Positions 1 through 16,628 of a stretch of DNA of 64,000 bases are shown here, one piece after another. Each line of letters begins with the position of its first letter. Position 1 is the stretch's first letter. The stretch lies in NCBI RefSeq assembly GCF_030013205.1, contig NZ_CP122648.1. The stretch is one strand, 5' to 3'. Both the position numbers and the translations under genes were made by a program. This DNA comes from Escherichia coli. Its GTDB lineage: Bacteria; Pseudomonadota; Gammaproteobacteria; Enterobacterales; Enterobacteriaceae. The notes beneath the pieces were generated by a model. The model made no database searches. It worked only from the letters and a program-made list of their open reading frames with translations, and was not told the origin of the DNA.

Positions 1-273
1 CAAAAAAGTGAGCTGTACGGTTAGCGCGCCAACCACGGAAAAAATCAGCAGACTAATGGCATCTTTGTGATTGTTAATAATAGAAAAGATTTTATCGCCA
101 TGAACAAATGACAGCGTCAGCAGAATCAAACCGGCGAATATCAAACGCGTCATAGTCAAAAACTGCGACGACATCTGGCTTTGCTCCATGATGTATTGCG
201 CGCAGACCCCTGAACTTCCCCACAACACGGCGGCAATCAGAACGTTCAGCATCCCCTTTCTGGTGGAACCCAT
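1..273 (-). CDS. yicL: EamA/DMT-family inner-membrane transporter YicL, N-terminal ~91 codons only (gene runs off window start)
   Basis: Minus-strand translation from ATG at 273..271 reads [31 protein letters not shown]...; absent from ORF track because no stop lies in the window; position next to setC fits E. coli synteny. Confidence 0.8.
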
Positions 274-383
274 TTTTCCCTCTGCATACTGTTTTGTCGT
301 TTATGTATGCAGGCATGATAGCAAAAATGGCGAGGATGGCTCTGTTTGCGCCACGCCGATTTTTCTTAGCTCAGACTGGTGAG

Positions 384-1568
384 CTAAATATCTTTAATAA
401 ACAGCAGGCAAATCATCGCAATACCCAGCATTCCTATCGCCAGCCAGAACAACGCGTGGTAGCTCCAGATTTCAACCATAATTCCGTCAACAGAGCCGGC
501 GATAATCCAGCCGACGCGTGAAGTATTTGCATATAACGTTGTCGCAGAGCCTATTTTTTCAGGCATCAGGTCCTGAAAATAAAGCATGCCGATACCACAG
601 AGAATACCAAGGAAGATGGCATTTAGAATTTGCAATTCCAGCTCAACTACCGGAGTCGTCGCCATGAGTACGCTGGCGTAAAAATACATACCACTCACGA
701 TAGCAATGAGCATTAATAGTCGCTTGCCAATACGTTTCATGTAATAGCCTGCGATTAACATCATCGGAATTTCCAGACCGGCAGCAATACCAATCATTTC
801 TCCAGCCAGTTTATCGGTTAGATGCAGTTCATCAATAATAAATAGCGGCATATTTATCATGTAGAGATTATTCGCCGCCCACATCATTGAACAAACCACG
901 AAAAGTAGCCGTGTATCCCGCTTTCTATGGATGGAGGGTAAAATTTCTACGGGTTGGGTAACGACAGGAATATTTCTTTGTATTGATGGCAAAAACAACC
1001 AGACTATCAGCCCGCAAACAACAAATGCGATGGCTGCGGTGAGATACATCACTTTAAAACTAAATCCCATTGCCAGCTCATAAGCGAGCGGTGGCCCGAT
1101 AACCCAGGCAAGCGAGATCTGAGCACGTAAAAATGTACTGAACATGACCGTCTCACGGCCTGTTCTGTCGGCGTGTTCACGGGCGAGGGCGAACATTTGC
1201 GGGTTTGCAGTGGAAGCAAAACTACTCAGAAGTACGCCCGTAGAGAGGAGAATGAAGTAGTTGCGATTCCACGCAAAAAGCGTGCAGGCCAGCACTCCAA
1301 ATAAGCAACATAGCAGAATCAGTAATTTACGGTCGCCTTGTTTATCGGAGTGCCTTGCCAGAAATTGACTGACCAGAATTCCCATAATAGCGCTACCGGT
1401 GAAGAAAAAACCTACCATTATAGGACGAGCTTTCAGTTCATCTGCGAGGAATATACTTAAGGTGGGAGTCTGGAGAGCGCCCGCAATACCAGTCAGAAAG
1501 GCGACAAGTAAAAATGCCGCGGCAGTGAGATCAAGTATTTTTGATGGAGTGGTAGCCGTTTTTTGCAT
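384..1568 (-). CDS. setC: MFS sugar efflux transporter SetC (394 aa)
   Basis: 394-aa polytopic membrane protein from ORF track; recognised as SetC/YicK from sequence and from position adjacent to selC. Confidence 0.85.
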   Translation of the reverse strand: MQKTATTPSKILDLTAAAFLLVAFLTGIAGALQTPTLSIFLADELKARPIMVGFFFTGSAIMGILVSQFLARHSDKQGDRKLLILLCCLFGVLACTLFAWNRNYFILLSTGVLLSSFASTANPQMFALAREHADRTGRETVMFSTFLRAQISLAWVIGPPLAYELAMGFSFKVMYLTAAIAFVVCGLIVWLFLPSIQRNIPVVTQPVEILPSIHRKRDTRLLFVVCSMMWAANNLYMINMPLFIIDELHLTDKLAGEMIGIAAGLEIPMMLIAGYYMKRIGKRLLMLIAIVSGMYFYASVLMATTPVVELELQILNAIFLGILCGIGMLYFQDLMPEKIGSATTLYANTSRVGWIIAGSVDGIMVEIWSYHALFWLAIGMLGIAMICLLFIKDI

Positions 1569-2204
1569 TCTTCTGAATCACCGGGCGACAAAATATAACT
1601 GAGTTACAAATAAGTACCAGTCGAATGAGTATTGTATTAAGAATTTTTGAGTATCGCTGATACAACCAGAAAGCAATGCTAGCGCAATATTATAGGGCCA
1701 GCAATTGAGATTATTAGCAAAAGCATGTTAAGAATTAATCACCGAATTTATATATTAATTATAGTAAGGCAATGAGCTATTTTTGATAGTAAAAATAAAA
1801 CAAGTTGATTTGATATATTAAATGAAAAAATTAATCTTGATGACAGTCTGATTATTGGTGAAGTTTACAGGTCAGTTTTTTTCGCCAGCGGTTAAAGGAA
1901 TAGAATAGTCGTATAAAAAAGGGTGTTATGGAGCGTGTAAAACAATATCTTCACCTTAATGGCGATACAGTTGGCTGTGAGCCAGCAGGGGGCAAATCAC
2001 CTGCAAATAAACACGGCACATGCTGGCGCGCATATCGCGGATGCGTTCGAGGACAGAAGAACCGACAGGCGGATTCTTCAGCAGCTCATCGTCCATCACA
2101 AAACCTTTGACCAGGTATTTCTGAAGCCGATTGAATATTGAGCAGTAGAAAATATCTGGATTGACAGTATTACGAGGGGTTGGAGAACGTATGAAGAGGC
2201 AAAT

Positions 2205-2299
2205 TGGCGGAAGATCACAGGAGTCGAACCTGCCCGGGACCGCTGGCGGCCCCAACTGGATTTGAAGTCCAGCCGCCTCACCGGAGACGACGATCTTCC
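2205..2299 (-). tRNA. selC: tRNA-Sec (selenocysteine, anticodon UCA)
   Basis: Reverse complement reads GGAAGATCGTCGTCTCCGGTGAGGCGGCTGGACTTCAAATCCAGTTGGGGCCGCCAGCGGTCCCGGGCAGGTTCGACTCCTGTGATCTTCCGCCA, the 95-nt E. coli selC sequence with long variable arm and CCA end. Confidence 0.95.
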
Positions 2300-2563
2300 G
2301 CGCCTCGATTGCTACATGGAGGCGGGGCGCATTATAGCTACTTCCTTGAGTTTCTACATCCCCCAGATCAGTTTTTTCCGCCTAATACACGCAGCGTATT
2401 ATCACGAAAGCATTATAATTCATATAAAACCCATATTTTACAATGATATATGAGCGGAATTAACGCTACCACGATCACATAAAACAAGAATCATAAATTA
2501 ATAACCAGATATCGGAATATTCGCTCTCACAGGGATGGTTTACAAAATGCGTTATCGGTCTCA

Positions 2564-2568
2564 GCACC
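2564..2568. repeat. 5-bp target-site duplication GCACC, left copy, flanking IS2
   Basis: GCACC immediately outside the IS2 terminus at 2569; identical pentamer at 3900..3904. Confidence 0.85.
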
Positions 2569-2579
2569 TGGATTTGCCC

Positions 2580-3485
2580 CTATATTTCCAGACATCTGTT
2601 ATCACTTAACCCATTACAAGCCCGCTGCCGCAGATATTCCCGTGGCGAGCGATAACCCAGCGCACTATGCGGATGCCATTCGTTATAATGCTCGAACGCC
2701 TCTGCAAGGTTCTTTGCTGCCGTTAACCCGTCTGGTTTGGGCATGATACTGATGTAGTCACGCTTTATCGTTTTCACGAAGCTCTCTGCTATTCCGTTAC
2801 TCTCCGGACTCCGCACCGCCGTGTTCTTCGGTTCAAGTCCCAACATCCGGGCGAACTGGCGTGTTTCATTAGCCCGGTAGCATGAACCATTATCCGTCAG
2901 CCACTCCACTGGAGACGACGGAAGATCGTTGCCGAAGCGGCGTTCCACCGCTCCCAGCATGACGTCCTGTACTGTTTCACTGTTGAAGCCGCCGGTAGTC
3001 ACCGCCCAGTGCAGTGCCTCACGATCACAGCAGTCCAGCGCGAACGTGACACGCAGTCTCTCTCCGTTATCACAGCAGAACTCGAACCCGTCAGAGCACC
3101 ATCGCTGATTGCTTTCTTTCACGGCCACTCTGCCTGTATGTGCCCGTTTCGATGGCGGTACAGCAGGTTTTCGCTCAAGCAACAGCGCATTCTGGCGCAT
3201 GATCCGGTAAACACGTTTGGCATTGATCGCAGACATACCATCAAGTTCTGCCTGTCTGCGAAGCAGCGCCCATACCCGACGATAACCATACGTGGGCAGC
3301 TCTCCGATAACATGGTGTATACGGAGAAGCACATCCGTATCATCAGTGTGACGACTGCGGCGGCCATCCATCCAGTCATCGGTTCGTCTGAGAATGACGT
3401 GCAACTGCGCACGCGACACCCGGAGACAACGGCTGACTAAGCTTACTCCCCATCCCCGGGCAATAAGGGCGCGTGCGCTATCCAC
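2580..3485 (-). CDS. insD: IS2 transposase OrfB (InsD) frame, 301 aa; expressed as OrfAB fusion by -1 frameshift
   Basis: ORF track protein [30 protein letters not shown]... with DDE integrase-type core; recognised as IS2 InsD. Confidence 0.9.
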
Positions 3486-3808
3486 TTTTTTGCCCGTCCA
3501 TATTCAACGGCTTCTTTGAGGAGTTCATTTTCCATCGTTTTCTTGCCGAGCAGGCGCTGGAGTTCTTTAATCTGCTTCATGGCGGCAGCAAGTTCAGAGG
3601 CAGGAACAACCTGTTCTCCGGCGGCGACAGCAGTAAGACTTCCTTCCTGGTATTGCTTACGCCAGAGAAATAACTGGCTGGCTGCTACACCATGTTGCCG
3701 GGCAACGAGGGAGACCGTCATCCCCGGTTCAAAGCTCTGCTGAACAATTGCGATCTTTTCCTGTGTGGTACGCCGTCTGCGTTTCTCCGGCCCTAAGACA
3801 TCAATCAT
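3443..3808 (-). CDS. insC: IS2 OrfA (InsC) HTH protein, 121 aa
   Basis: [41 protein letters not shown]...; start placed at the internal Met of the 136-aa track ORF to give the 121-aa InsC. Confidence 0.85.
3485..3491 (-). promoter_or_regulatory. Programmed -1 ribosomal frameshift heptamer A-AAA-AAG at the insC/insD overlap
   Basis: Minus strand reads GCA AAA AAG TGG in the InsC frame; the -1 frame continues GTG GAT AGC... which is the InsD N-terminus (MDSARAL). Confidence 0.7.
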
Positions 3809-3899
3809 CTGTTCTCCAATGACTAGTCTAAAAACTAGTATTAAGACTATCACTTATTTAAGTGATACTGGTTGTCTGGAGATTCAGGGGGCCAGTCTA

Positions 3900-3904
3900 G
3901 CACC
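3900..3904. repeat. 5-bp target-site duplication GCACC, right copy, flanking IS2
   Basis: GCACC immediately after the IS2 end at 3899. Confidence 0.85.
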
Positions 3905-3927
3905 CCTATAGCATCAAGGAAAAGCAG

Positions 3928-5310
3928 ATGAAGAGTGAAGTGTTGTCCGTTAAAGAGAAAATTGGTTATGGCATGGGAGACGCCGCCAGCCACATTATTT
4001 TCGATAACGTAATGTTATATATGATGTTCTTTTATACCGATATTTTTGGCATTCCTGCCGGATTTGTCGGAACCATGTTTTTGGTCGCTCGTGCACTGGA
4101 TGCGATTTCCGATCCTTGCATGGGGTTGTTGGCCGATCGAACGCGCTCTCGCTGGGGTAAATTTCGTCCGTGGGTACTGTTTGGCGCACTGCCATTTGGG
4201 ATCGTCTGTGTACTGGCCTATAGCACGCCAGATCTCAGTATGAACGGCAAAATGATCTATGCAGCAATTACTTACACCCTACTTACCTTACTTTATACCG
4301 TCGTCAATATCCCTTACTGCGCATTGGGTGGTGTAATCACCAATGACCCGACTCAGCGTATCTCGCTGCAATCCTGGCGTTTTGTGCTGGCGACCGCGGG
4401 AGGCATGCTCTCTACTGTTCTGATGATGCCACTGGTTAATTTAATTGGCGGTGATAATAAACCACTCGGTTTCCAGGGCGGTATCGCGGTCCTTTCCGTG
4501 GTGGCATTCATGATGCTGGCATTTTGTTTCTTCACCACTAAAGAACGCGTTGAAGCACCACCTACAACGACGTCTATGCGGGAAGATTTACGTGATATCT
4601 GGCAAAACGACCAGTGGCGGATTGTCGGTTTACTAACCATTTTCAATATCCTGGCGGTGTGCGTACGCGGTGGGGCGATGATGTATTACGTCACATGGAT
4701 TTTGGGTACGCCGGAAGTGTTTGTCGCTTTTCTCACCACTTATTGCGTGGGTAACCTGATTGGTTCCGCACTGGCAAAACCGCTGACCGACTGGAAATGT
4801 AAAGTCACTATCTTCTGGTGGACGAACGCCCTGCTGGCAGTGATTAGCCTCGCGATGTTCTTTGTTCCTATGCAGGCCAGCATCACTATATTTGTCTTCA
4901 TCTTCGTGATTGGTGTGTTGCATCAACTGGTGACACCTATCCAGTGGGTAATGATGTCCGATACCGTCGACTACGGCGAGTGGTGCAATGGTAAACGCCT
5001 GACCGGGATCAGTTTTGCTGGCACGCTGTTTGTGCTCAAACTGGGGTTGGCCTTCGGCGGCGCTCTTATCGGCTGGATGCTGGCTTATGGCGGATATGAT
5101 GCGGCAGAAAAAGCGCAGAACAGCGCCACGATTAGCATCATTATTGCGCTATTCACGATTGTTCCGGCGATCTGTTATTTGCTGAGCGCGATTATCGCTA
5201 AACGCTACTACTCACTCACGACGCACAATCTGAAAACCGTTATGGAACAGCTGGCCCAGGGCAAACGCCGTTGCCAGCAACAATTCACCTCTCAAGAAGT
5301 GCAGAACTAA
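3928..5310 (+). CDS. yicJ: GPH-family (glycoside-pentoside-hexuronide:cation symporter) transporter YicJ, 460 aa
   Basis: 460-aa membrane protein MKSEVLSVKEKIGYGMGDAASHIIFDNVMLYMMFFYTDIFG...; directly upstream of yicI as in E. coli. Confidence 0.9.
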   Translation: MKSEVLSVKEKIGYGMGDAASHIIFDNVMLYMMFFYTDIFGIPAGFVGTMFLVARALDAISDPCMGLLADRTRSRWGKFRPWVLFGALPFGIVCVLAYSTPDLSMNGKMIYAAITYTLLTLLYTVVNIPYCALGGVITNDPTQRISLQSWRFVLATAGGMLSTVLMMPLVNLIGGDNKPLGFQGGIAVLSVVAFMMLAFCFFTTKERVEAPPTTTSMREDLRDIWQNDQWRIVGLLTIFNILAVCVRGGAMMYYVTWILGTPEVFVAFLTTYCVGNLIGSALAKPLTDWKCKVTIFWWTNALLAVISLAMFFVPMQASITIFVFIFVIGVLHQLVTPIQWVMMSDTVDYGEWCNGKRLTGISFAGTLFVLKLGLAFGGALIGWMLAYGGYDAAEKAQNSATISIIIALFTIVPAICYLLSAIIAKRYYSLTTHNLKTVMEQLAQGKRRCQQQFTSQEVQN

Positions 5311-5319
5311 GGAACGGCA

Positions 5320-7638
5320 ATGAAAATTAGCGACGGAAACTGGTTGATTCAACCTGGCCTCAATTTGATTCACCCGCTTCAGGTGTTCGAGGTTGAACAG
5401 CAGGGTAATGAAATGGTGGTCTATGCTGCCCCCCGTGATGTGCGTGAACGAACCTGGCAGCTTGATACGCCTTTATTTACGCTGCGCTTTTTCTCCCCAC
5501 AGGAAGGTATTGTCGGTGTACGGATTGAGCATTTTCAGGGGGCGCTGAATAACGGTCCTCATTATCCGCTCAATATTTTGCAGGACGTGAAGGTCACAAT
5601 CGAAAACACAGAACGTTACGCTGAGTTTAAAAGTGGCAACTTAAGCGCGCGTGTCAGCAAAGGTGAGTTCTGGTCACTGGATTTTCTGCGCAACGGCGAA
5701 CGTATTACCGGTAGTCAGGTGAAAAATAATGGCTACGTGCAGGACACGAATAATCAACGAAATTATATGTTTGAGCGGCTGGATCTTGGCGTTGGCGAAA
5801 CAGTTTACGGTCTGGGAGAGCGCTTTACTGCCCTGGTGCGCAATGGCCAGACGGTAGAGACCTGGAACCGGGACGGCGGCACAAGTACTGAACAGGCGTA
5901 TAAAAATATTCCGTTCTATATGACTAACCGTGGTTATGGGGTACTGGTCAATCATCCTCAATGCGTCTCTTTTGAAGTGGGATCGGAGAAAGTCTCCAAA
6001 GTGCAGTTCAGCGTTGAGAGTGAATATCTCGAATACTTTGTTATCGACGGCCCGACGCCGAAAGCGGTACTTGATCGTTATACCCGTTTTACTGGTCGTC
6101 CGGCGCTGCCGCCCGCGTGGTCCTTCGGCCTGTGGCTAACCACTTCATTTACCACCAACTACGACGAAGCGACGGTAAACAGCTTTATCGATGGTATGGC
6201 GGAACGCAATCTGCCACTGCATGTTTTCCACTTTGACTGTTTCTGGATGAAAGCCTTCCAGTGGTGCGATTTTGAGTGGGACCCGCTGACTTTCCCGGAC
6301 CCGGAAGGGATGATCCGCCGCCTGAAAGCGAAAGGGCTAAAAATCTGCGTCTGGATTAACCCCTATATCGGGCAAAAATCCCCTGTCTTTAAAGAGTTAC
6401 AAGAGAAAGGCTATTTACTCAAACGCCCGGACGGTTCGTTATGGCAGTGGGATAAATGGCAGCCAGGTCTGGCGATTTATGACTTTACCAATCCGGATGC
6501 CTGCAAATGGTACGCCGACAAACTGAAAGGTCTGGTCGCGATGGGCGTTGATTGCTTTAAGACCGACTTTGGCGAACGTATTCCAACCGATGTTCAGTGG
6601 TTTGACGGTTCCGATCCGCAGAAAATGCATAACCATTATGCGTACATCTACAACGAACTGGTGTGGAAAGTGCTCAAGGAAACCGTTGGCGAGGAAGAAG
6701 CCGTCTTGTTTGCTCGCTCGGCCTCCGTTGGTGCGCAGAAATTCCCGGTACACTGGGGTGGTGACTGTTACGCTAACTACGAATCAATGGCGGAAAGCCT
6801 GCGCGGTGGTTTGTCTATTGGCCTTTCAGGTTTTGGTTTCTGGAGCCACGATATCGGCGGCTTTGAGAATACCGCTCCGGCGCACGTTTACAAACGCTGG
6901 TGCGCGTTTGGTTTGCTCTCCAGCCATAGCCGTTTACATGGCAGCAAATCTTATCGTGTGCCGTGGGCCTACGATGATGAGTCCTGTGATGTGGTGCGCT
7001 TCTTCACGCAACTGAAATGCCGCATGATGCCGTATCTGTATCGTGAAGCTGCTCGTGCGAACGCGCGGGGTACGCCGATGATGCGGGCCATGATGATGGA
7101 GTTCCCGGACGATCCGGCTTGTGATTACCTTGACCGTCAATACATGTTAGGCGACAACGTGATGGTTGCTCCGGTGTTCACTGAAGCGGGCGATGTGCAG
7201 TTCTACTTGCCGGAAGGTCGCTGGACACATCTGTGGCACAACGATGAACTCGATGGTAGTCGCTGGCATAAACAGCAGCACAGCTTCCTGAGTCTGCCCG
7301 TTTATGTGCGTGATAACACCCTACTGGCGCTGGGCAACAACGAGCAACGTCCCGATTACGCGTGGCACGAAGGCACGGCATTCCAGCTCTTTAATCTACA
7401 AGACGGGCATGAAGCCATCTGTGAAGTGCCCGCTGCTGACGGTTCCGTTCTTTTCACCCTGAAAGCGGCGCGTACTGGCAACACGATTACTGTGACTGGT
7501 GCGGGCGAGGCGAAGAACTGGACACTGTGCTTGCGCAATGTTGTGAAAGTAAATGGTCTGCAAGGTGGTTCGCAGGCTGAAAGTGAGCAGGGACTGGTGG
7601 TGACTCCTCAAGGGAATGCGCTGACAATTACGTTGTAA
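5320..7638 (+). CDS. yicI: Alpha-xylosidase YicI (glycoside hydrolase family 31), 772 aa
   Basis: 772-aa ORF with GH31 hallmarks (WIDMNE-like region ...KTDFGERIP...); recognised as YicI. Confidence 0.9.
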
Positions 7639-7651
7639 TCTATTGAAGAAT

Positions 7652-7683
7652 GCCGGATACGAATGGTTTTGTGTCGTATCCGG
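7652..7683 (+). terminator. Stem-loop (GCCGGATACG ... CGTATCCGG) just after the yicI stop; REP-like or terminator hairpin
   Basis: Perfect 9-10 bp inverted repeat 14 bp after the yicI TAA; no strong U-tract. Confidence 0.45.
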
Positions 7684-7932
7684 TAAATAATCTCACATCT
7701 GGTAATAAATATTTCTTCCATCGTATTTGCGAGCATGATCACGATTATTCATCACGAAAATGTGATCTGTGCCGAAAAATATCTATTAACCGCCCCGTTT
7801 TGTTTTATACATGTCCGGACTACGGACAGATTTTAGTATTGTTGTGAAATTATTCTGCTTTATATTTACCCTCAGAGATGGCAACTGAAGCTCTTCCACA
7901 TGGGGCTTCTTAATCTGTGATAAGGGTAAAAA

Positions 7933-9486
7933 ATGCAAATGATTACCTCGCGACAAAACAGATTATTACGATTCCTTTTACCACGAAGGGAATATACGAC
8001 TATTGTTACGATTGCCGGCTATTTAAATGTTTCGGAAAAAACCATTCAACGTGATTTACGTTTACTTGAGCAATGGCTGGAACAATGGCGAATAACCGTT
8101 GAGAAGCGTGCTGGCGCAGGTGTGATGTTAGACTCGAAGAATATTACTGATTTGCTGCATCTTGATCATTTGTTGGGAGCAGAATGTGAAGAGATTGATG
8201 GTGTAATGAATAATGCCAGGCGCGTTAAAATAGCGTCGCAGTTATTAAGTGAAACACCGAATGAAACGTCGATCAGTAAATTGTCAGAGCGCTATTTTAT
8301 CAGTGGAGCCTCTATTGTTAATGACCTGAGAGTGATTGAGTCCTGGCTTGCGCCGTTGGGGTTATCATTGATCCGAAGCCCAAGTGGTACGCATATTGAA
8401 GGTAGTGAAGGGCAAGTCCGACAGGCAATGGCATTACTGATTAACGGCATTATTAACCATAATGAGCCGCAAGGTGTCGTGTATTCACGTCTGGATCCCG
8501 GAAGTTATAAAGCATTAGTCCATTATTTTGGAGAAGAAGAGGTGTTATTTGTCCAGTCATTGTTACTGGATATGGAAAATGAATTAAGTTGGTCTTTGGG
8601 AGAGCCTTATTACGTTAACATTTTTACTCACATCCTTATTATGATGTATCGCAACACGCACGGGAATGCGTTATCCAGAGAAGAAGATCAAACCAGGCAA
8701 TATGATGAAAATATCTTTAATGTTGCCAGTCAGATGATTCATAAGATAGAACAACGAATTGCACATACATTGCCCGATGATGAAGTCTGGTTTATTTATC
8801 AATATATCATTTCATCAGGTGTGGCGATTGATGGACAAAAAGATGTTAGCATTATTTCACATATGCAGGCCAGCAATGAAGCGCGTCTGATTACCTGGCG
8901 TTTAATTACGGTATTCAGTGACATCGTGGACTGCGATTTTAGTGAAGACAGCGCATTATATGATGGCTTGTTGGTTCATATTAAGCCGCTGATTAACCGA
9001 CTAAATTATCGCATTCATATCCGTAATCCATTGCTGGAAGATATTAAAGCAGAATTAGCGGATGTCTGGCGGTTGACGCAATATGTGGTGAATCAGGTAT
9101 TTAAAACCTGGGGTGAGAATGCAGTGAGCGAGGATGAAGTAGGTTACCTGACCGTTCATTTTCAGGCTGCGATGGAGCGGCAAATTGCCCGTAAACGTGT
9201 ATTACTGGTCTGTTCAACCGGAATCGGAACTTCGCATCTACTGAAAAGCCGTATTCTGCGAGCATTTCCTGAATGGACGATTGTTGATGTTATTTCAGCA
9301 GCGAATTTATCACAGGTTTTGCCTGACAATATCGAACTGATTATTTCGACCATTAATTTGCCTACAGTCACTATGCCGGTCGCTTATGTTACCGCTTTTT
9401 TTAATGATGCCGATATTAAGCGAGTCACTGAAATGGTGATTACGGAAAAATTACATCATGCGACATCTCGGGTCGTTGAAATTTAA
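7933..9486 (+). CDS. PRD-containing transcriptional activator (BglG/LicR/MtlR type) with N-terminal HTH and C-terminal PTS EIIB-like domain, 517 aa
   Basis: N-terminal winged-helix region (TIVTIAGYLNVSEKTIQRDLRLLEQ), central PRD-like regions, C-terminal LLVCSTGIGTSHLLKSRI (EIIB-Gat-like phosphorylatable Cys motif); heads a PTS operon. Confidence 0.7.
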   Translation: MQMITSRQNRLLRFLLPRREYTTIVTIAGYLNVSEKTIQRDLRLLEQWLEQWRITVEKRAGAGVMLDSKNITDLLHLDHLLGAECEEIDGVMNNARRVKIASQLLSETPNETSISKLSERYFISGASIVNDLRVIESWLAPLGLSLIRSPSGTHIEGSEGQVRQAMALLINGIINHNEPQGVVYSRLDPGSYKALVHYFGEEEVLFVQSLLLDMENELSWSLGEPYYVNIFTHILIMMYRNTHGNALSREEDQTRQYDENIFNVASQMIHKIEQRIAHTLPDDEVWFIYQYIISSGVAIDGQKDVSIISHMQASNEARLITWRLITVFSDIVDCDFSEDSALYDGLLVHIKPLINRLNYRIHIRNPLLEDIKAELADVWRLTQYVVNQVFKTWGENAVSEDEVGYLTVHFQAAMERQIARKRVLLVCSTGIGTSHLLKSRILRAFPEWTIVDVISAANLSQVLPDNIELIISTINLPTVTMPVAYVTAFFNDADIKRVTEMVITEKLHHATSRVVEI

Positions 9487-9512
9487 TGTCAGAATTTTAT
9501 GAGGTATGACGA

Positions 9513-9983
9513 ATGGACATAACAAAAATCCTGAATACGAATCGCGTTATTTTAGATATGCAAGCGACGAATAAAGCGGAGGCGATTGAAGAATTAACTA
9601 ATCTTCTCAAAAAAGATGGTGCGATCGATTGTCGGGAAACCTTTATTAAAGATGTCTGGCAGCGCGAAGCGGAAGGCTCGACTGGTTTTGAAAATCATAT
9701 TGCGATCCCGCATGGTAAATCTTCTGCGGTAATTAATACCACGCTGGCTATCGGGCGTACCCGGCAGGATATTCCCTGGGAAACACTGGATGGCAGTAGC
9801 GTACGCTGTATTATTTTATTTGCGGTACGTCTTGAAGATCAAAATACCACTCATATCCGTTTACTTTCCCAGGTCGCGGGCGCGCTTGCAGATGATGACA
9901 TCATAGCGCAATTGCTGGTTGAGACGAGCCCGCAAAAAATCATTGATCTCTTTAGTCAGTATGCACAATCCGATGTCTACTAA
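9513..9983 (+). CDS. PTS EIIA component, fructose/mannitol (type 2) family, 156 aa
   Basis: ...GFENHIAIPHGKSSAV... conserved phospho-His region of EIIA-2 domains. Confidence 0.75.
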   Translation: MDITKILNTNRVILDMQATNKAEAIEELTNLLKKDGAIDCRETFIKDVWQREAEGSTGFENHIAIPHGKSSAVINTTLAIGRTRQDIPWETLDGSSVRCIILFAVRLEDQNTTHIRLLSQVAGALADDDIIAQLLVETSPQKIIDLFSQYAQSDVY

Positions 9984-10000
9984 ATAACAGGGAGTATCTC

Positions 10001-10315
10001 ATGAATATTGTCTGTGTTGCCGCCTGCACGGCGGGTATTGCTCACACCTATATTGCTCGTGAAAAGTTAATTAAAGGGGCAAAAGCACTGGGCCACACCA
10101 TTAAAGTTGAAACCCAGGGAACCATTGGTACAGAAAACGAATTGCAGGCGGCAGAGATCTCTGCTGCTGACGTCGTGATTCTTGCTGTGGATGTGAAAAT
10201 AAAAGGAGAAGAACGTTTTACCAATAAACGCATTGTGCGAGTAAAGACAGAGATCGTCATTAAATCGCCCGTTCAATTTCTTGAAAAGGTCGAAAAATCA
10301 CTGGGAAATAAATGA
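10001..10315 (+). CDS. PTS EIIB component, fructose-like family, 104 aa
   Basis: MNIVCVAACTAGIAHTYIAREKL...: N-terminal CxxCxxGIAHT phospho-Cys motif typical of fructose-type EIIB. Confidence 0.75.
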   Translation: MNIVCVAACTAGIAHTYIAREKLIKGAKALGHTIKVETQGTIGTENELQAAEISAADVVILAVDVKIKGEERFTNKRIVRVKTEIVIKSPVQFLEKVEKSLGNK

Positions 10316-10339
10316 TCCTTATACTGGAGGGATCTTAAT

Positions 10340-11431
10340 ATGAAAGAAAATAAAATTCCGGTTTCACAGGAAATTAAAAAACATTTATTAACCGGCATCT
10401 CGTGGATGATACCCCTTATTGTGGCCGCCGGGATATGTATTGCGTTGGGGCAAGTTCTTGGCGGTACAGATGTTGGTGAAAAAACAGGAACAATCCCGTG
10501 GATGCTTAATCAGATTGGCGGCTGGGGAATGGGGCTGATTGTGCCGCTGATTAGCGCGGCAATTGCCTATTCTATTGCCGATCGTCCCGGATTTGCCCCG
10601 GGCCTGATTGTCGGCTTTCTCTGTGGGCAAATCCATACCGGATTTATTGGCGGTATGTTGGGTGGTTTCCTGGTGGGCTACACCATTTTGCTACTTAAAC
10701 GCTATATTCGCCTGCCGCAGTCGATGCAAGGACTCATGCCAATCATGGTGTTGCCGGTATTAAGCACCATTATCGGTGGGCTGTTAATGATGACGCTGAT
10801 TGGTAAACCCATCGCCTGGTTACAAGAAGCACTGATTCATTTGCTCGAGTCGATGCAGGGCGGATCGCGCTTCCTGATGGGGGCCATACTTGGCGCGATG
10901 GCAACCTTCGATTTCGGTGGTCCGGTCAACAAAACCATGTCGCTGTTTTCCGATGGCTTGCTGGTCAGTGGCGTCTACGGACCAGAAGCCGTGAAATTTG
11001 TCGGCTCAATCATCCCTCCGTTTGGCATCACACTTTCGTTCTTACTGACACGCCATAAATACACCCGTGCGGAGCGCGAGGCGCTGAAAGCCGCGTTTCC
11101 GATGGGGATCTGCATGATCACTGAAGGAGTCATTCCGATCGCCGCGCGTGACCTGTTGCGAGTAGTGGGATCTTGTGTGGTGGCATCGGCGGTCGCGGGC
11201 GGCTTAATCATGGTGTGGGGCGTGGAGAGTCCGGTTCCACATGGCGGCATGTTTGTTGTGCCTCTGTTCACCCATCCTCTGCTGTTTTGCCTGGCGCTGG
11301 GTATAGGCACGGTGATTTGTGGCGTGATGCTTTCACTCTGGAAGAAACCGGTAACGGAACGCGACGAAGAGTTTGACGAACTGAGCGATCAAAAGCTGAA
11401 AGATGAAGAGATCACTTTCACCCTCGAATAA
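10340..11431 (+). CDS. PTS EIIC permease component, fructose-like family, 363 aa
   Basis: Polytopic membrane protein immediately downstream of EIIA/EIIB; Gly-rich TM helices typical of EIIC-Fru. Confidence 0.7.
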   Translation: MKENKIPVSQEIKKHLLTGISWMIPLIVAAGICIALGQVLGGTDVGEKTGTIPWMLNQIGGWGMGLIVPLISAAIAYSIADRPGFAPGLIVGFLCGQIHTGFIGGMLGGFLVGYTILLLKRYIRLPQSMQGLMPIMVLPVLSTIIGGLLMMTLIGKPIAWLQEALIHLLESMQGGSRFLMGAILGAMATFDFGGPVNKTMSLFSDGLLVSGVYGPEAVKFVGSIIPPFGITLSFLLTRHKYTRAEREALKAAFPMGICMITEGVIPIAARDLLRVVGSCVVASAVAGGLIMVWGVESPVPHGGMFVVPLFTHPLLFCLALGIGTVICGVMLSLWKKPVTERDEEFDELSDQKLKDEEITFTLE

Positions 11432-11442
11432 CCGGAGGCCCT

Positions 11443-12294
11443 ATGTTTGCCGATATGAAAAGTATGGTGATGAAAGCCTGGCATGAACATTACGCCTTGC
11501 TGGCGATCAACTGTATGAATCTGGAAAGTGCTCGCGCAGCTATCCGCGTGGCGGAGAAGAATCGCGCTCCGATCATTCTCAATCTCTATCAGGGGCATCT
11601 GGCGCATTTTCCTGCACCCGTCGCGGCGGCAGTGGTTAAAACGCTCGCGGAATCTGCCTCAGTACCGGTCACTCTGGCGCTTGATCATGGCAAAAATCCG
11701 GACTGTATTCGTCAGGCGTTTCGTGCTGGTTTCAGCGGATTAATGATTGATGCTTCTGCTTTTCCCCTGGAGGAAAACGTGCGCCAGACCAAGGCGGTGG
11801 TGGAACTCGCCGCCAGCGCGCAGCTCTGCGTTGAAGGCGAACTGGGCCATCTGGCAGATGCGCCGCGTTACGACCAGGCCGCCAATGCAGACATGATGAC
11901 GCAACCCACTGATGTGGAAGCGTTTATCGCGCAGACAGGCATTGATCTACTGGCCGTCTCGGTAGGCACGGCGCACGGCATGTACGCGCCTGGTGTTGTA
12001 CCTGCTATTGATTTTCAGCGTCTGGCGGAGATTTTCCACTGCTCGAGCGTGCCTCTGGCATTACATGGTGGTAGCGGTACGCCGTTCGATCAGCTCCAGC
12101 TCTGTACGACTCTGGGGGTAGCAAAAATCAACGTGGGGGCGGCCATTTTTGAACGGGGGAAATCCGCGCTCCTGCATACCCTCTGTCACGATATATCCAT
12201 TGAACTGGTGGACGCGCTGAAAGCTATGGAACTGGCCTTCGAAGAAGCGATTACACCGTATTTACAGGCGAGCGGCTCTATCGGCAAAGCCTGA
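11443..12294 (+). CDS. Class II ketose-bisphosphate aldolase (GatY/KbaY/FbaA family), 283 aa
   Basis: Contains LDHG, GTAHG and HGGSG motifs of class II zinc aldolases. Confidence 0.75.
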   Translation: MFADMKSMVMKAWHEHYALLAINCMNLESARAAIRVAEKNRAPIILNLYQGHLAHFPAPVAAAVVKTLAESASVPVTLALDHGKNPDCIRQAFRAGFSGLMIDASAFPLEENVRQTKAVVELAASAQLCVEGELGHLADAPRYDQAANADMMTQPTDVEAFIAQTGIDLLAVSVGTAHGMYAPGVVPAIDFQRLAEIFHCSSVPLALHGGSGTPFDQLQLCTTLGVAKINVGAAIFERGKSALLHTLCHDISIELVDALKAMELAFEEAITPYLQASGSIGKA

Positions 12295-12374
12295 TTCATT
12301 TTCTGTCATGGCCTTTATGCCAGTGCAATAACGCACCGGCAGGGCGGACTACACGCTGAAACTGGAGATTTAAC

Positions 12375-13235
12375 ATGTTAGTTTCGATGAAAGAATTACT
12401 GCAACCTACCCGCCAGCACGGCTTTGCCATTGGCGCATTTAATGTGGCGGATAACTGTTTCCTTCGCGCAGTCGTGGATGAAGCAGAAGCGACAAATACT
12501 CCGGCGATTATTGCCATCCATCCCAGCGAACATGATTTTGTGGGCGATGCCTTTTTCGCTCACGTTCGCGAAATTACCCAGCGTAGTCCGGTCCCGTTTG
12601 TACTGCACCTCGATCATGGTGCCTCTGTAGAGCATGTTTTGCGTGCGATTCGCTGCGGATTTACCTCAGTAATGATCGACGGTTCGCTGCTGCCGTATGA
12701 AGAAAACGTGGCGCTGACCGCAGAAGTGGTTCGCCTCGCTCACGCGGTTGGAGTGTCGGTTGAGGGTGAACTGGGAACCATCGGACAAACAGGAACGTCG
12801 GTAGAAGGTGGTGTTTCACAAGTGACCTACACAGATCCGGCGCAGGCCGCCGATTTTATTGCTCGTACAGGTGCCGACACTCTGGCTGTGGCGATTGGTA
12901 CAGCGCATGGCATCTATCCAAAAGGGATGCAGCCGAAGCTGCAAATGGACATTTTGCGCGACATTGCCGGACGTATTGATATTCCGCTGGTGCTACACGG
13001 TGGTTCGGCAAACCCGGACGCGGAGATTGCTGAATCAGTTACGCTCGGCGTCGGCAAAATCAATATCTCCAGCGATATGAAATACGCCTATTTCCAGAAA
13101 GTGCGTGAAATTCTCGCTAAAGAGAGCTGGTGGGACCCGAACGTCATCTATCCGGATGCGATTAACGCGGCGCGGGAAGTCATTCGCCACAAAATGAAAC
13201 TGTTCGGTTCGCTCGGTAAAGCATCACTGTACTAA
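12375..13235 (+). CDS. Class II ketose-bisphosphate aldolase paralogue (GatY/KbaY family), 286 aa
   Basis: LHLDHG, GELG, GTAHG, LHGGS motifs; second tandem paralogue. Confidence 0.75.
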   Translation: MLVSMKELLQPTRQHGFAIGAFNVADNCFLRAVVDEAEATNTPAIIAIHPSEHDFVGDAFFAHVREITQRSPVPFVLHLDHGASVEHVLRAIRCGFTSVMIDGSLLPYEENVALTAEVVRLAHAVGVSVEGELGTIGQTGTSVEGGVSQVTYTDPAQAADFIARTGADTLAVAIGTAHGIYPKGMQPKLQMDILRDIAGRIDIPLVLHGGSANPDAEIAESVTLGVGKINISSDMKYAYFQKVREILAKESWWDPNVIYPDAINAAREVIRHKMKLFGSLGKASLY

Positions 13236-13240
13236 GCCAG

Positions 13241-13264
13241 AAGGGCGGGGTGACCCGCCTTTTA
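13241..13264 (+). terminator. GC-rich hairpin plus T-run between aldolase 2 and the kinase (possible intra-operon attenuator or partial terminator)
   Basis: GGGCGGG-GTGA-CCCGCCT followed by TTTT, 6 bp after the aldolase stop. Confidence 0.4.
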
Positions 13265-13282
13265 CGCAACAAGGAACGAGAT

Positions 13283-14215
13283 ATGCACTATCTGGGGTTG
13301 GATATTGGTGGGACCAAAATCGCCGCCGTCGTCATGGATGCGCATGGCTGGGAGATTCGCCGTTACCGCTGCCCGACGCAAAAGTCGACATATCAACAAT
13401 TTGTCTCATGCGTTGTGGCGTTTATCGAGCAGATTAGGCGGGACGTTCAACGACCGATGCTGACAGGGATCGCCTTACCCGGCAGTATCTCGCCACTCAC
13501 TGGCCTGATTAAAAACGCGAATATTCAGGTGATTAACGGTCATGCGTTACAGGCTGATTTGCAGCAATTGCTTGGGCAACCGGTGGTGATAGCCAATGAT
13601 GGTAACTGTTTCGCGCTATCAGAAGCTTGCGACGGTGCCGGGCAAGATTATGACGTGGTATTTGGTATTACGCTTGGTACGGGCTGCGGCGGTGGCATTG
13701 CCATCAAGCAACGACCGTTTATAGGGGCCTGGGGAAATGCTGCCGAATGCGGTCATATCACGTTGCCAGGCTATACGGAGCAGGAAGATGGTCCATCAGT
13801 CAGTTGCTATTGCGGCAAACACAACTGCGTGGAGTCGTTTGTTTCCGGCAGCGGTTTTAGTGAACGCTATCAACAGATGACTGGTAACTTGCTCACTCCT
13901 GCGGCGATTGTCACCCTGGCACAACGTGGTGATGCTTGTGCCATGCAGCAGGTGGCACGTTTTCGCCAACAGCTTGCCCGCACGCTGGCAACCATCGTTA
14001 ACGTTGTTGACCCTGGCGTGATTGTGATCGGCGGCGGGCTTTCGAATGTGGAACTGCTTATCACCGCTCTGAACGCAGAAGTTGCTCCACTGGTTTTCAC
14101 CGATCAATTCACCACTCCCATTGTAAAAGCACAGCACGGCGACAGTAGCGGAATGCGTGGCGCTGCCTGGCTTGCTATGCGCAACGGAGAAGCCAATGAA
14201 ACGTTCACAAATTAA
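13283..14215 (+). CDS. ROK-family sugar kinase, ~310 aa
   Basis: MHYLGLDIGGTKIAAV... N-terminal ATP motif and CYCGKHNCVESF zinc-binding ROK signature; start moved to the ATG with AAGGAA Shine-Dalgarno rather than the upstream GTG of the track ORF. Confidence 0.75.
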   Translation: MHYLGLDIGGTKIAAVVMDAHGWEIRRYRCPTQKSTYQQFVSCVVAFIEQIRRDVQRPMLTGIALPGSISPLTGLIKNANIQVINGHALQADLQQLLGQPVVIANDGNCFALSEACDGAGQDYDVVFGITLGTGCGGGIAIKQRPFIGAWGNAAECGHITLPGYTEQEDGPSVSCYCGKHNCVESFVSGSGFSERYQQMTGNLLTPAAIVTLAQRGDACAMQQVARFRQQLARTLATIVNVVDPGVIVIGGGLSNVELLITALNAEVAPLVFTDQFTTPIVKAQHGDSSGMRGAAWLAMRNGEANETFTN

Positions 14216-14876
14216 TTATGTTATTGATAAAGCACATGCCATTGCGCAGACCTTCCGCGTTTGTTTGCCAGAGTTCGCCTATTTTACGGTGGATGACTGG
14301 CTGCAGCTGGAACGGGATAACTGGCAAGAAGTGGTCGACTTACAGCTCGGTTGGGATATCACCGATTTTGGTCGTGGTGATTTCAACCAAACGGGACTAA
14401 CACTGCTAACGATGCGCAACGGCGCGCTGGGGTCGGCGGCATATCCAAAACCGTATGCTGAGAAAATGTTGCAGATCCAACAAGATCAGCAGACTCCTTG
14501 GCATTTTCACACCCACAAAATGGAAGATATCCTCAATCGGGGCGGTGGAGACTTATGCATGCAGTTGGCCTGGGCCAACGAAGCCAATCTCTGTGATGAT
14601 CAACGAGTCATTACCGTGAGTGTTGATGGTCAGCGGCGTACCATGAAACCTGGTGAAACGCTGGTGCTAAAGCCGGGGCAGGGCATTTGCCTGCCGCCGC
14701 GTCTGTATCATCGCTTCTGGGCGGAAAAAGCGTTTGTTCTCGGCTGGGAAATTTCGATGGTAAATGATGACCAACATGATAACCATTTTCTTGAGCCGGG
14801 AGGACGTTTTCCGGCGATAGAAGAAGATGAACCGGTGAAATGGTTATTGTGTAGTGAGTATGCTGTTTTGCGGTAA
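14196..14876 (+). CDS. Cupin-fold sugar isomerase, D-lyxose/D-mannose isomerase-like, ~226 aa
   Basis: Size and His-rich segment (WHFHTHKMEDI) resemble cupin-type D-lyxose isomerases; start taken at the ATG preceded by GGAGA; overlaps the kinase stop. Family assignment is from memory. Confidence 0.5.
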   Translation: MKRSQINYVIDKAHAIAQTFRVCLPEFAYFTVDDWLQLERDNWQEVVDLQLGWDITDFGRGDFNQTGLTLLTMRNGALGSAAYPKPYAEKMLQIQQDQQTPWHFHTHKMEDILNRGGGDLCMQLAWANEANLCDDQRVITVSVDGQRRTMKPGETLVLKPGQGICLPPRLYHRFWAEKAFVLGWEISMVNDDQHDNHFLEPGGRFPAIEEDEPVKWLLCSEYAVLR

Positions 14877-14885
14877 TAGCGGGGA

Positions 14886-14909
14886 CGCTAACGTTGATAT
14901 CCGTTAGCG
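14886..14909. terminator. Palindromic hairpin (CGCTAACG-TTGATATC-CGTTAGCG) between convergent island operon and yicH
   Basis: Perfect 8-bp stems with an 8-nt loop in the 42-bp spacer; could act bidirectionally. Confidence 0.45.
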
Positions 14910-14918
14910 CCCGCGTAT

Positions 14919-16628
14919 TTACTGCACCGGCTCCGTCGATGTAACTTCGCCACTGGAAACGACGCCTGCATTCATGGTTTGAGTCACTTGCTGCTTTGTG
15001 GCGTTCACGGCATGCAATTGCCCGCTAACCGTAGGTTTCAGCGGGACATTGGCCTGAATATCGCCACTGGCAGTAAGCTGAATATTGCCGTCGCCAGTCA
15101 ACGGTAATTCAGGCCATCCCCACTGTTGCAAAATATTCACCGGCACACCGCGTCCATTCAGGCTGATATGGGTCTGACGTTGTGGCGTTTGTGAAACACT
15201 GGCGGTGGCTTCCAGAATGCCTTTTTCAGTAAATGCACTCAGTTCGCTGATATTCACCGTGCTGCTGTTGGCGGTCAGCGCCAGCGATGGGCGACGAACA
15301 TCAACACGATTGAATGTCGCGGCGGCGGCATTCAGATTCGCCGAACCACTCCAGACGCCCCATTTATGATCGGTAACCAGCGTCAGGTTGGCACCGTAAC
15401 CATCGAGCGCGGTGAGCTGCCACGGGAAGTCAGGGTCGATATCAATGATCAGATTGCGGCTGGCGCTAAATCTCTTCAGTTGCAGGCTGTTTAACCAGCC
15501 GGGTGTCGTTTCCATCCACAACTGTTGCCAGTTTTTCGGCAAGGTATATTCCAGCCCGGCAATTGCCGCATCATCAAGGATCAACGTTTTCCCGTTGCGC
15601 AGCCAGTTCCCGGACGTTCTGACCATGCCCCCTTCCCAGCGGCTGGTGAACTGGCGCAGTGCTACGCCCTGCGGGGAAAATTCTGCGTTTATAATCAGAT
15701 CAAATAAATGCAGCGAGCCATAAATAAACTCGCTAGCGTTCATCGACAGTTTGCCTTCCTGTGTCTGCCAGTCATCTTTACTGAAGGTCATGTTGCGCAA
15801 GCTGAGATCGAGGTCGGTCACCGCCCAGTCCGGACCTTGCAAACGAGCATCGATCACTTCCAGGCGACCAATCTGCAACGACGGGACAGAGCGTAATGGC
15901 GCAAAGAAGTCGGTTAGCGATTTTTCGCTTTGTAGACGGATATCCGCCAGCCGCAGATTTTCCACTTGCCAGCTGCCGTCGGCGTTACGCTGCGCGTTTC
16001 CGGTTAATGTCCCGCGGGCGATGTCGGCACCCAGGTTAGTCAGCGTAACGCGATCGTTATCAATACTGCCTTCAATCAGTACATTGGTGGCAGGAACATC
16101 ATTGAGCGAAAGCGATCCGGCACTAAACTGAATCTGCGCCTTCGTACCCAGCACTTTACCGGCTTCTGGTGACCACGGAACCACGCCGCCATTTACCCGC
16201 TGCGCGCTCAGTTTCCATTCGCTATTCGGGCTATTAAACGCCATATCACGCAGTTGCAGACGATCGGCTTTGAACGGTAGCGGCGCGGTCTGGTCGGTGA
16301 GATTCAGCGTCCCGTTTTCCAGCAGGATGGTATCGACATGGCGTGGTTCGGTCAGTTGCCGACTGCTTAGCGCAATGTCGACACTTTTTGCCACCAGGGT
16401 CGCGGGCTGACCATCACGGCCGAACGTGACGTTCTCCAGCACGATATGAGATGGCGCGGAAAAACGGTGATCCATCGCCCCGAAGGCCAGATGATAGTCG
16501 CTATTCTCGGAAACCCATGCGCTGATATGTTCTGCTCCCCAGCGGGTTTGCAGAAGAAAATAGAGGCCAGCGATCACCACTAACAGAGCGATGAAAATGT
16601 AGAGAAGCAGCTTCCCAATAAATTTCAT
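14919..16628 (-). CDS. yicH: AsmA-family protein YicH, 569 aa
   Basis: N-terminal signal-anchor MKFIGKLLLYIFIALLVVIAGLYF; start taken at the internal Met of the 577-aa track ORF. Confidence 0.85.
   Translation of the reverse strand: MKFIGKLLLYIFIALLVVIAGLYFLLQTRWGAEHISAWVSENSDYHLAFGAMDHRFSAPSHIVLENVTFGRDGQPATLVAKSVDIALSSRQLTEPRHVDTILLENGTLNLTDQTAPLPFKADRLQLRDMAFNSPNSEWKLSAQRVNGGVVPWSPEAGKVLGTKAQIQFSAGSLSLNDVPATNVLIEGSIDNDRVTLTNLGADIARGTLTGNAQRNADGSWQVENLRLADIRLQSEKSLTDFFAPLRSVPSLQIGRLEVIDARLQGPDWAVTDLDLSLRNMTFSKDDWQTQEGKLSMNASEFIYGSLHLFDLIINAEFSPQGVALRQFTSRWEGGMVRTSGNWLRNGKTLILDDAAIAGLEYTLPKNWQQLWMETTPGWLNSLQLKRFSASRNLIIDIDPDFPWQLTALDGYGANLTLVTDHKWGVWSGSANLNAAAATFNRVDVRRPSLALTANSSTVNISELSAFTEKGILEATASVSQTPQRQTHISLNGRGVPVNILQQWGWPELPLTGDGNIQLTASGDIQANVPLKPTVSGQLHAVNATKQQVTQTMNAGVVSSGEVTSTEPVQ

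Follow-up and report, generated by a model that had tools for sequence, protein, structure and literature searches.

A conserved hairpin between the second aldolase and the ROK kinase of the frz operon in ExPEC: probably a leftover operon-end terminator, now an mRNA-stability barrier or a leaky attenuator

Among the mRNA decay terminators, stable stem-loops that lie just 3′ of the protected cistron in a polycistronic message, the one between pufBA and pufLMX of Rhodobacter capsulatus is an example. In E. coli, conserved protective 3′ structures tune the stoichiometry of operons through differential decay, for which malEFG serves as the model case (PMC5927463). Expression ratios are also known to be set by partial terminators within an operon, and for these the nearest ribosome matters: at a stop codon it protects about 10 nt downstream, a terminator hairpin needs 10–15 nt of free RNA beyond the stop codon, and the strong tR2 terminator falls from about 90% to less than 10% efficiency when a stop codon is placed 5 bp from its hairpin (Li et al., PMC4824070). 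In papBA, an operon of pathogenic E. coli, an intercistronic hairpin with a cleavage site immediately 5′ of it stabilises the downstream cistron. Here we compare with these systems a hairpin found between an aldolase gene and a kinase gene of E. coli.

The window, by which we mean the whole stretch of 64,000 nt that was analysed, is from the chromosome of an ExPEC-type E. coli. Its plus strand carries a run of eight genes. Five were identified from the ORF list, the PGAP annotation and the Pfam matches of their orthologs, namely an Mga/PRD-type regulator (7933–9486), PTS IIA (9513–9983), PTS IIB (10001–10315), PTS IIC (10340–11431) and a class II fructose-bisphosphate aldolase (aldolase 1, 11443–12294). 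They are followed by a class II ketose-bisphosphate aldolase (aldolase 2, 12375–13235, with its stop codon TAA at 13233–13235; PF01116 in orthologs), a ROK-family sugar kinase (13283–14215, starting at the ATG at 13283 according to PGAP and homology) and a cupin isomerase of the D-lyxose/D-mannose family (14196–14876; PF07385 in orthologs), whose first 20 nt lie within the 3′ end of the ROK gene. The successive intergenic spacers are 26, 17, 24, 11, 80, 47 and −20 nt long. In APEC O1:K1:H7 the eight genes are found in the order yicJ, yicI, the eight genes, convergent yicH and xanP, the last also on the opposite strand. From gene content, including a PTS of the fructose type, and from the location between yicI and yicH, we take this eight-gene locus to be the frz operon of ExPEC. 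That operon was reportedly described by Rouquet et al. in 2009, J Bacteriol 191:4427, and on the same two grounds ours would be the same operon. The identification is consistent with the passages on frz in PMC12928451 and PMC8777976, both of which cite Rouquet et al. 2009, and the passage in the latter has the genes "transcribed in one operon".

The frz locus is associated with ExPEC and linked to fitness and virulence. Of 5426 complete E. coli genomes, 1605 carry it, as judged by matches at 95–100% identity to a 701-nt query centred on the hairpin region, with a single match per genome that was always on the chromosome and was annotated "ketose-bisphosphate aldolase | ROK family protein". The element itself is an intercistronic RNA hairpin at 13241–13262 on the plus strand, placed 5 nt after the aldolase-2 stop codon and 20 nt before the ATG of the ROK kinase. 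Folding and covariation among orthologs both give it as AAGGGCGGG-GUGA-CCCGCCUUU, the 5′ arm AAGGGCGGG occupying 13241–13249, the loop (GTGA in the DNA) 13250–13253 and the 3′ arm, CCCGCCTTT in the DNA, 13254–13262. The whole spacer with its borders reads TAA (13233–13235), GCCAG, AAGGGCGGG, GTGA, CCCGCCTTT, T, ACGCAAC, AAGGAA, CGAGAT and ATG (13283). Nine pairs make up the stem (six G-C, one G·U and two A-U), which can be extended by a tenth, G13240·T13263, and by two outer G-C pairs (13236/37 with 13266/67). The Shine-Dalgarno sequence of the kinase, AGGA at 13272–13275 on the plus strand, 7 nt before the ATG, is unpaired in the predicted fold, and its GGA is invariant across the alignment of ortholog spacers. 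The GTG at 13250 in the hairpin loop was ruled out as the ROK start, given that the PGAP start and the onset of homology both fall at ATG 13283; moreover, the ortholog spacers of 47, 48, 49 and 50 nt differ by non-multiples of three, so that this GTG is not a coding start.

The hairpin is far more stable than expected for its composition. A 24-nt segment folds at −15.8 kcal/mol, compared to −6.6 ± 2.4 for its shuffles (z −3.8, with 0 of 200 shuffles as good), a 35-nt segment reaches −20.7 kcal/mol (z −4.8), and the hairpin is retained in both the MFE and the centroid fold of a 100-nt context. When all 26-nt windows of the 64 kb are folded on either strand, it ranks in about the top ten for stability. 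The antisense strand folds far less well (−12.8, z −1.2). The hairpin is single-copy, occurring at exactly one place in each of the 1605 E. coli genomes, and the core motif GGCGGGN4CCCGCC has one match in the window. Ortholog loci that carry the core motif have one match each at the homologous site, the sole extra match being inside the ROK coding region of locus L026, from the K. aerogenes/Raoultella group.

We tried several known element classes on the hairpin. A dispersed palindrome of the REP/BIME type was ruled out by the single copy, and the same feature separates the frz hairpin, which is also short (9–10 bp), from the dispersed REP repeats of malE-malF. Membership of a curated Rfam family was rejected, as no covariance model matched at E ≤ 1 on either strand of 7600–15000. 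A RAT target for an antiterminator of the BglG/LicT type was rejected on the domains of the regulator and on geometry: the precomputed Pfam lists for the 517-aa frz regulator and for its orthologs show HTH_11, Mga, PRD and faint PTS_IIB matches and lack the CAT RNA-binding domain, and the element, which is 5 nt from a stop codon and not in a leader, leaves no space for a RAT sequence overlapping its 5′ arm. The label "BglG family transcription antiterminator" that PGAP gives to this regulator is generic.

ROK kinase relatives were taken from representative genomes and, via protein homologs, from other assemblies. The eight-gene synteny is kept at 20 loci of seven hairpin lineages, from Escherichia sp., two Citrobacter, Phytobacter, Raoultella terrigena, R. 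planticola, Klebsiella aerogenes, Buttiauxella and several metagenomic contigs, and at all 20 of these frz loci the hairpin occupies the same place in the spacer of 47–50 nt between aldolase 2 and ROK. Its core, GGCGGG/CCCGCC, is nearly invariant, with Buttiauxella having GGGGCGRG/CUCGCCCC, and the outer stem varies with compensation (AAG/UUU, GAG/CUC, GGAAG/CUUCC, GCAG/CUGC). In a 12-sequence alignment standard pairs fill 94.5% of the cells, compared to 45–63% when the partners are slid by 1–3 columns, and four of the ten stem pairs show compensatory double changes. The covariation score of 0.28 was reached by none of 500 shuffles (0.13 ± 0.03), and RNAalifold independently predicted the same nine-pair helix. 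As with decay terminators, it is the structure more than the sequence that is conserved across orthologous operons. Variation within E. coli agrees with this pattern: 1440 of the 1605 genomes are identical over 35 nt and have the majority GUGA loop, and in the three variant genomes sampled only the loop differs within the hairpin, the stems being intact.

The GNRA, UNCG and CUUG families, which together make up 13 of the 256 tetramers, are unusually stable RNA tetraloops. The loops found at frz are GUGA (E. coli and Citrobacter), GCAA (a minority of E. coli; a double change from GUGA that is still GNRA), GGAA (R. planticola type), UUCG (Phytobacter and R. terrigena), UACG (K. aerogenes), CUUG (Buttiauxella) and AUGA (one E. 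coli variant). Six of these seven distinct loops belong to the three families when read on the sense strand and none of the seven when read on the antisense strand (binomial P ~1e-7). The pairing has the same polarity, with seven cells of sense-strand G·U, which would be A·C mismatches in the antisense, versus one of the reverse kind, and the sense fold is more stable than the antisense fold in 10 of 12 sequences and never less stable. Judged from these comparisons of sequences, the hairpin is under selection as a very stable structure of the sense transcript and is neither a chance fold nor a DNA palindrome. It would also illustrate how stability by itself can be the target of selection on a hairpin, one ultra-stable tetraloop being exchanged for another.

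The surroundings of the orthologous operons differ in places. At the K. aerogenes/Raoultella loci (L020, L026 and L027, about 8600–12900) the frz isomerase and yicH are separated by additional genes for an RpiR/SIS regulator, a GH4 glycosidase and a PTS IIBC, and in R. terrigena (L017) frz is at another chromosomal site, adjoining a sugar ABC transporter.

Intrinsic terminators pair a GC-rich stem of about 5–14 bp with a U-tract of about 7–8 nt, usually with at least 5 U, and have to fold at some distance from the terminating ribosome. The frz hairpin is like them in its GC-rich stem (9–10 pairs, ΔG −15.8 kcal/mol), its stable tetraloop, the short A/U flanks that it has in E. coli (GAA...UUUU) and its position just after a stop codon. 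It differs from them in the U-tract, in the distance to the ribosome and in lying inside what the frz passage of PMC8777976 reports as a single transcription unit. In E. coli the residual U run, UUUU at 13260–13263 on the plus strand, is exactly four bases long and is followed by ACGCAAC; its first three U's are stem bases, and G13240 is a possible partner of the last. With the whole run paired to GAAG in the fully extended stem, the tail is ACGCAACA; counted from the end of the G-C core the tail is UUUUACGC, with 4 U. We judged terminator strength by U counts and by comparison terminators within the window: terminator-like sites elsewhere in it carry 5–8 T's versus four here, and a terminator scan with a threshold of at least five T in eight did not call the hairpin. 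Among the orthologs, the 8 nt past the stem hold 0–5 U. Over 8–10 nt, the tails are UCUUUCGU in Citrobacter, UUCGCAAU in Phytobacter (with UUUCGC near the stem), AAUCGGCA in K. aerogenes, UGACUGGC in R. planticola, CUGACGGG in a related metagenomic contig (meta_L027) and CAACAACA in Buttiauxella; the U-tract is missing from about half of the orthologous lineages, K. aerogenes and Buttiauxella have one U or none, and 3–5 U near the stem are kept in the E. coli, Citrobacter and Phytobacter lineages.

Unlike the U-tract, the geometry of the spacer is conserved. In all orthologs 3–9 nt separate the stop codon from the first paired base, too few for the hairpin to fold under coupled translation, while 18–24 nt separate the stem from the ATG and the Shine-Dalgarno sequence is always unpaired. 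Since the U-tract is not conserved, a function common to all orthologs cannot be canonical intrinsic termination. Moreover, with a stop codon 5 nt away, and by analogy to the repression of tR2 (PMC4824070), the E. coli hairpin, its four U's included, should be a mostly silent terminator while aldolase 2 is being translated. Some termination may nevertheless occur in the three lineages that keep 3–5 U. An earlier note on this DNA had described a hairpin with a GC-rich stem and TTTT close to the aldolase-2 stop codon and ahead of the kinase Shine-Dalgarno sequence, with which the sequence agrees, and had called it terminator-like. As a matter of shape the term is apt for E. coli, but it does not carry over to the conserved function, as the U-tract is lost in orthologs and the stop codon is 3–9 nt away.

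The history of the operon gives the hairpin a possible source. Used as a tblastn query against plasmid-labelled records, aldolase 2 led to Listeria monocytogenes NCTC7974 (NZ_LR134401.1; locus L039, 2735–7960), which has a colinear operon of six genes encoding a PRD regulator, IIA, IIB, IIC, aldolase 1 and aldolase 2, with amino-acid identities to frz genes 1–6 of 30, 48, 55, 54, 40 and 63%. The Listeria and frz aldolases pair one-to-one, with merely 33–39% identity in the cross-comparisons. A 63%-identical aldolase 2 in a Firmicute suggests, at the level of sequence, that the PTS-aldolase module was transferred across phyla. In Listeria aldolase 2 is the last gene, and five bases after its stop codon there is a canonical, bidirectional terminator, AAAAAAACUAAGAG-N8-CUCUUAGUUUUUUU, with an A7 arm, a U7 tail and a ΔG of −20.5, followed by a convergent gene. 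On a Pantoea megaplasmid the operon is shorter (regulator, IIA, IIBC, aldolase), and there too the aldolase comes last, followed by a hairpin and a convergent gene. The Listeria record, we note, is labelled a plasmid although it is 810 kb long and chromosomal in look.

The closest relatives of the ROK kinase outside frz are 62–66% identical and come from Klebsiella, Erwinia, Pantoea and Affinibrenneria, where the operon differs from frz and consists of PTS IIC, a GH38 alpha-mannosidase, an Mga/PRD-IIA regulator, a porin and the ROK gene. Such surroundings hint at a manno- or fructokinase activity of the frz kinase. The frz hairpin thus sits exactly where the homologous module stops elsewhere, and the kinase, with its kin in another operon, appears to be a movable part; this suggests an origin of the hairpin in the terminator that once closed the six-gene operon. 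Two side observations concern the same relatives: the ROK gene is the last or near-last gene of its operon (L018, L019 and L022–L025, about 1–7950), and in Affinibrenneria it is followed by a type I phosphomannose isomerase.

The suggestion in the earlier note that the hairpin marks the seam between two modules thus gains from the Listeria operon, which ends at aldolase 2 with a terminator, and from the location of the ROK kin, but within frz itself neither GC content nor divergence betrays a seam. At the hairpin we found no compositional seam (GC 0.524 versus 0.533), and the ROK and isomerase genes showed no phylogenetic incongruence with the upstream genes, giving the same ranking of taxa among frz orthologs. 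As the downstream genes diverge congruently, any fusion would predate the spread of frz among Enterobacteriaceae. The direction could also be the reverse, with Listeria having lost the kinase and isomerase rather than Enterobacteriaceae having gained them. Separately, there is a GC step within the operon (7933–14876), where the regulator, IIA and IIB have 41–44% GC (GC3 38–42%) and IIC onward 49–55%; it is the sole one and falls between IIB and IIC, away from the hairpin.

We suggest that the hairpin is probably a leftover operon-end terminator that now acts as an mRNA-stability barrier or as a leaky attenuator. Within this, the reading that we tentatively prefer, arrived at by analogy and by exclusion, is that of a vestigial terminator kept as an intercistronic barrier to decay. 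The ancestral six-gene module would have ended in an intrinsic terminator, downstream of which the pair of ROK kinase and cupin isomerase genes would have joined; after the fusion the U-tract would have eroded and RNA polymerase would have read through. The stem-loop would have been kept as a block to 3′→5′ exonucleases (PNPase, RNase II) following an RNase E cut in the distal segment, with the result that message for the regulator, PTS and aldolases would be longer-lived and more abundant than message for the kinase and isomerase. The residual UUUU of E. coli may add slight true termination, mainly when aldolase 2 is untranslated, since a ribosome terminating translation 5 nt upstream would sit over the 5′ arm. 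The frz hairpin shares with malE-malF, puf and the structures of PMC5927463 the arrangement of a stable stem-loop just 3′ of a cistron in a polycistronic mRNA, the operon status of frz being taken from a citing review. It is also like decay terminators in needing no U-tract, in its conservation in enterobacterial orthologs and in the higher level expected for the upstream segment. The structures of Dar & Sorek 2018 (PMC5927463) are, in contrast, mostly inside the downstream coding region, whereas the frz hairpin is intergenic.

A pause, leaky termination or 5′ protection of downstream RNA would account equally well for selection on a stable hairpin, and other explanations need to be weighed. 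At a leaky Rho-independent terminator or attenuator some polymerases would stop at UUUU and fewer kinase and isomerase transcripts would be made, perhaps under the control of aldolase-2 translation. The E. coli element, with 6–7 G-C pairs, a stable tetraloop and then UUUU, has the right composition for this, as do the Citrobacter tail (UCUUUCGU) and UUUCGC in Phytobacter; there is a true terminator at the homologous Listeria position, and partial terminators are known to set ratios within operons (PMC4824070). However, we regard this explanation as unlikely: the run of only four U's gives way to ACGC and was passed over by the consensus scan, the hairpin is kept in K. aerogenes, R. planticola-type loci and Buttiauxella though the U-tract is missing, the 3–9 nt between stop codon and stem is a distance that represses even tR2 (PMC4824070), and co-transcription of the operon is reported in the frz passage of PMC8777976. 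The hairpin might instead serve the downstream cistron, either by 5′ protection after an RNase E cut, as in papBA, or by shortening the path from stop codon to Shine-Dalgarno sequence for re-initiation. The conserved geometry (3–9 nt from stop to hairpin, 18–24 nt from hairpin to ATG, unpaired Shine-Dalgarno) would suit such a role, and E. coli operons offer documented cases of 5′ protective structures beside RNase E sites (PMC5927463). The resemblance to papBA extends to an intercistronic hairpin in an operon of pathogenic E. coli with segments of possibly different stability, but no cleavage site comparable to that of papBA is evident at frz, where a non-systematic look between stop codon and hairpin revealed no RNase E motif. 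As this role also has no precedent specific to the frz operon, and the homologous Listeria position is an operon end and so points to a 3′-end role, we think it quite improbable.

An outright fossil of the ancestral terminator, functionless and drifting neutrally, would sit exactly where this hairpin does, at the position where the six-gene module ends in Listeria and the shorter module in Pantoea, and erosion of the U-tract is what a relic would undergo. A relic should, however, also lose its pairing, which here stands at 94.5% with compensatory changes; with loops repeatedly swapped for other ultra-stable tetraloops, and with the stem spared in the three sampled E. coli variants, there is little to recommend neutral drift. 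Least credible of all is a function at the DNA level, as an operator for a dimeric regulator or as part of an internal promoter. The nearly invariant inverted repeat GGCGGG/CCCGCC is what such a palindrome would look like, yet G·U pairs are tolerated on the sense strand, the special tetraloops appear on that strand only, the sense fold is the more stable one, and the outer stem varies in sequence while keeping its pairing. In addition, a promoter scan found no promoter-like site for the kinase around 13000–13300.

Returning to the hairpin as a retained barrier to decay, the earlier note had proposed differential expression of the genes upstream and downstream of it. This is plausible, with covariation and tetraloop swapping indicating a function at the RNA level, of which polarity between the two sets of genes is the most plausible consequence, but the route would be another: given the weak U-tract, the proximity of the stop codon and the reported single transcription unit, differential expression is likelier to arise by mRNA decay than by termination. 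More speculatively, and with considerable doubt on our part, an exapted fossil terminator kept for its thermodynamic stability could form a translation-gated valve which, together with a second hairpin in another spacer, would yield three differently expressed segments. A ribosome at the aldolase-2 stop codon would then melt the hairpin and allow the kinase and isomerase to be made, and upon a lapse in translation the hairpin would terminate or seal the transcript. The class of element and the mechanisms considered here are not new, and the frz operon has already been described. The locus would be a clean, small example of a terminator repurposed when gene modules fuse, by mechanisms that are themselves already known. 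Conserved internal mRNA structures would help to explain how much transporter and aldolase is made relative to kinase and isomerase, and reporter and knockout designs at frz are likely to meet polar effects.

Other hairpins were seen in the window. The 80-nt spacer between aldolase 1 and aldolase 2 (12295–12374) contains a second conserved, imperfect inverted repeat, GCC..AUGCCAGuGC-N6-GCaCCGGCAGGGC, with its core at about 12313–12350; every frz ortholog examined has it at the corresponding position. On the sense strand it folds at −15 to −23 kcal/mol. The antisense fold is the better one in the window and in the majority of the orthologs examined, and is strongest, at −27 to −31.5, in Klebsiella and Raoultella. 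This repeat may split the frz message in three; alternatively, its role may be that of a DNA or antisense element.

At the end of the operon a further hairpin (14879–14914) lies between the isomerase stop at 14876 and the stop of the convergent yicH at 14919. It folds at ΔG −21.8 on the plus strand and −26.2 on the minus strand, has a weak T tail, GTATTTAC, and is likely a bidirectional operon-end terminator. Upstream, just past the stop codon of yicI, a hairpin at 7652–7684 (GCCGGATACG-N13-CGTATCCGGT) is the probable terminator of yicI and is followed by about 250 nt of AT-rich sequence that precede the frz regulator gene.
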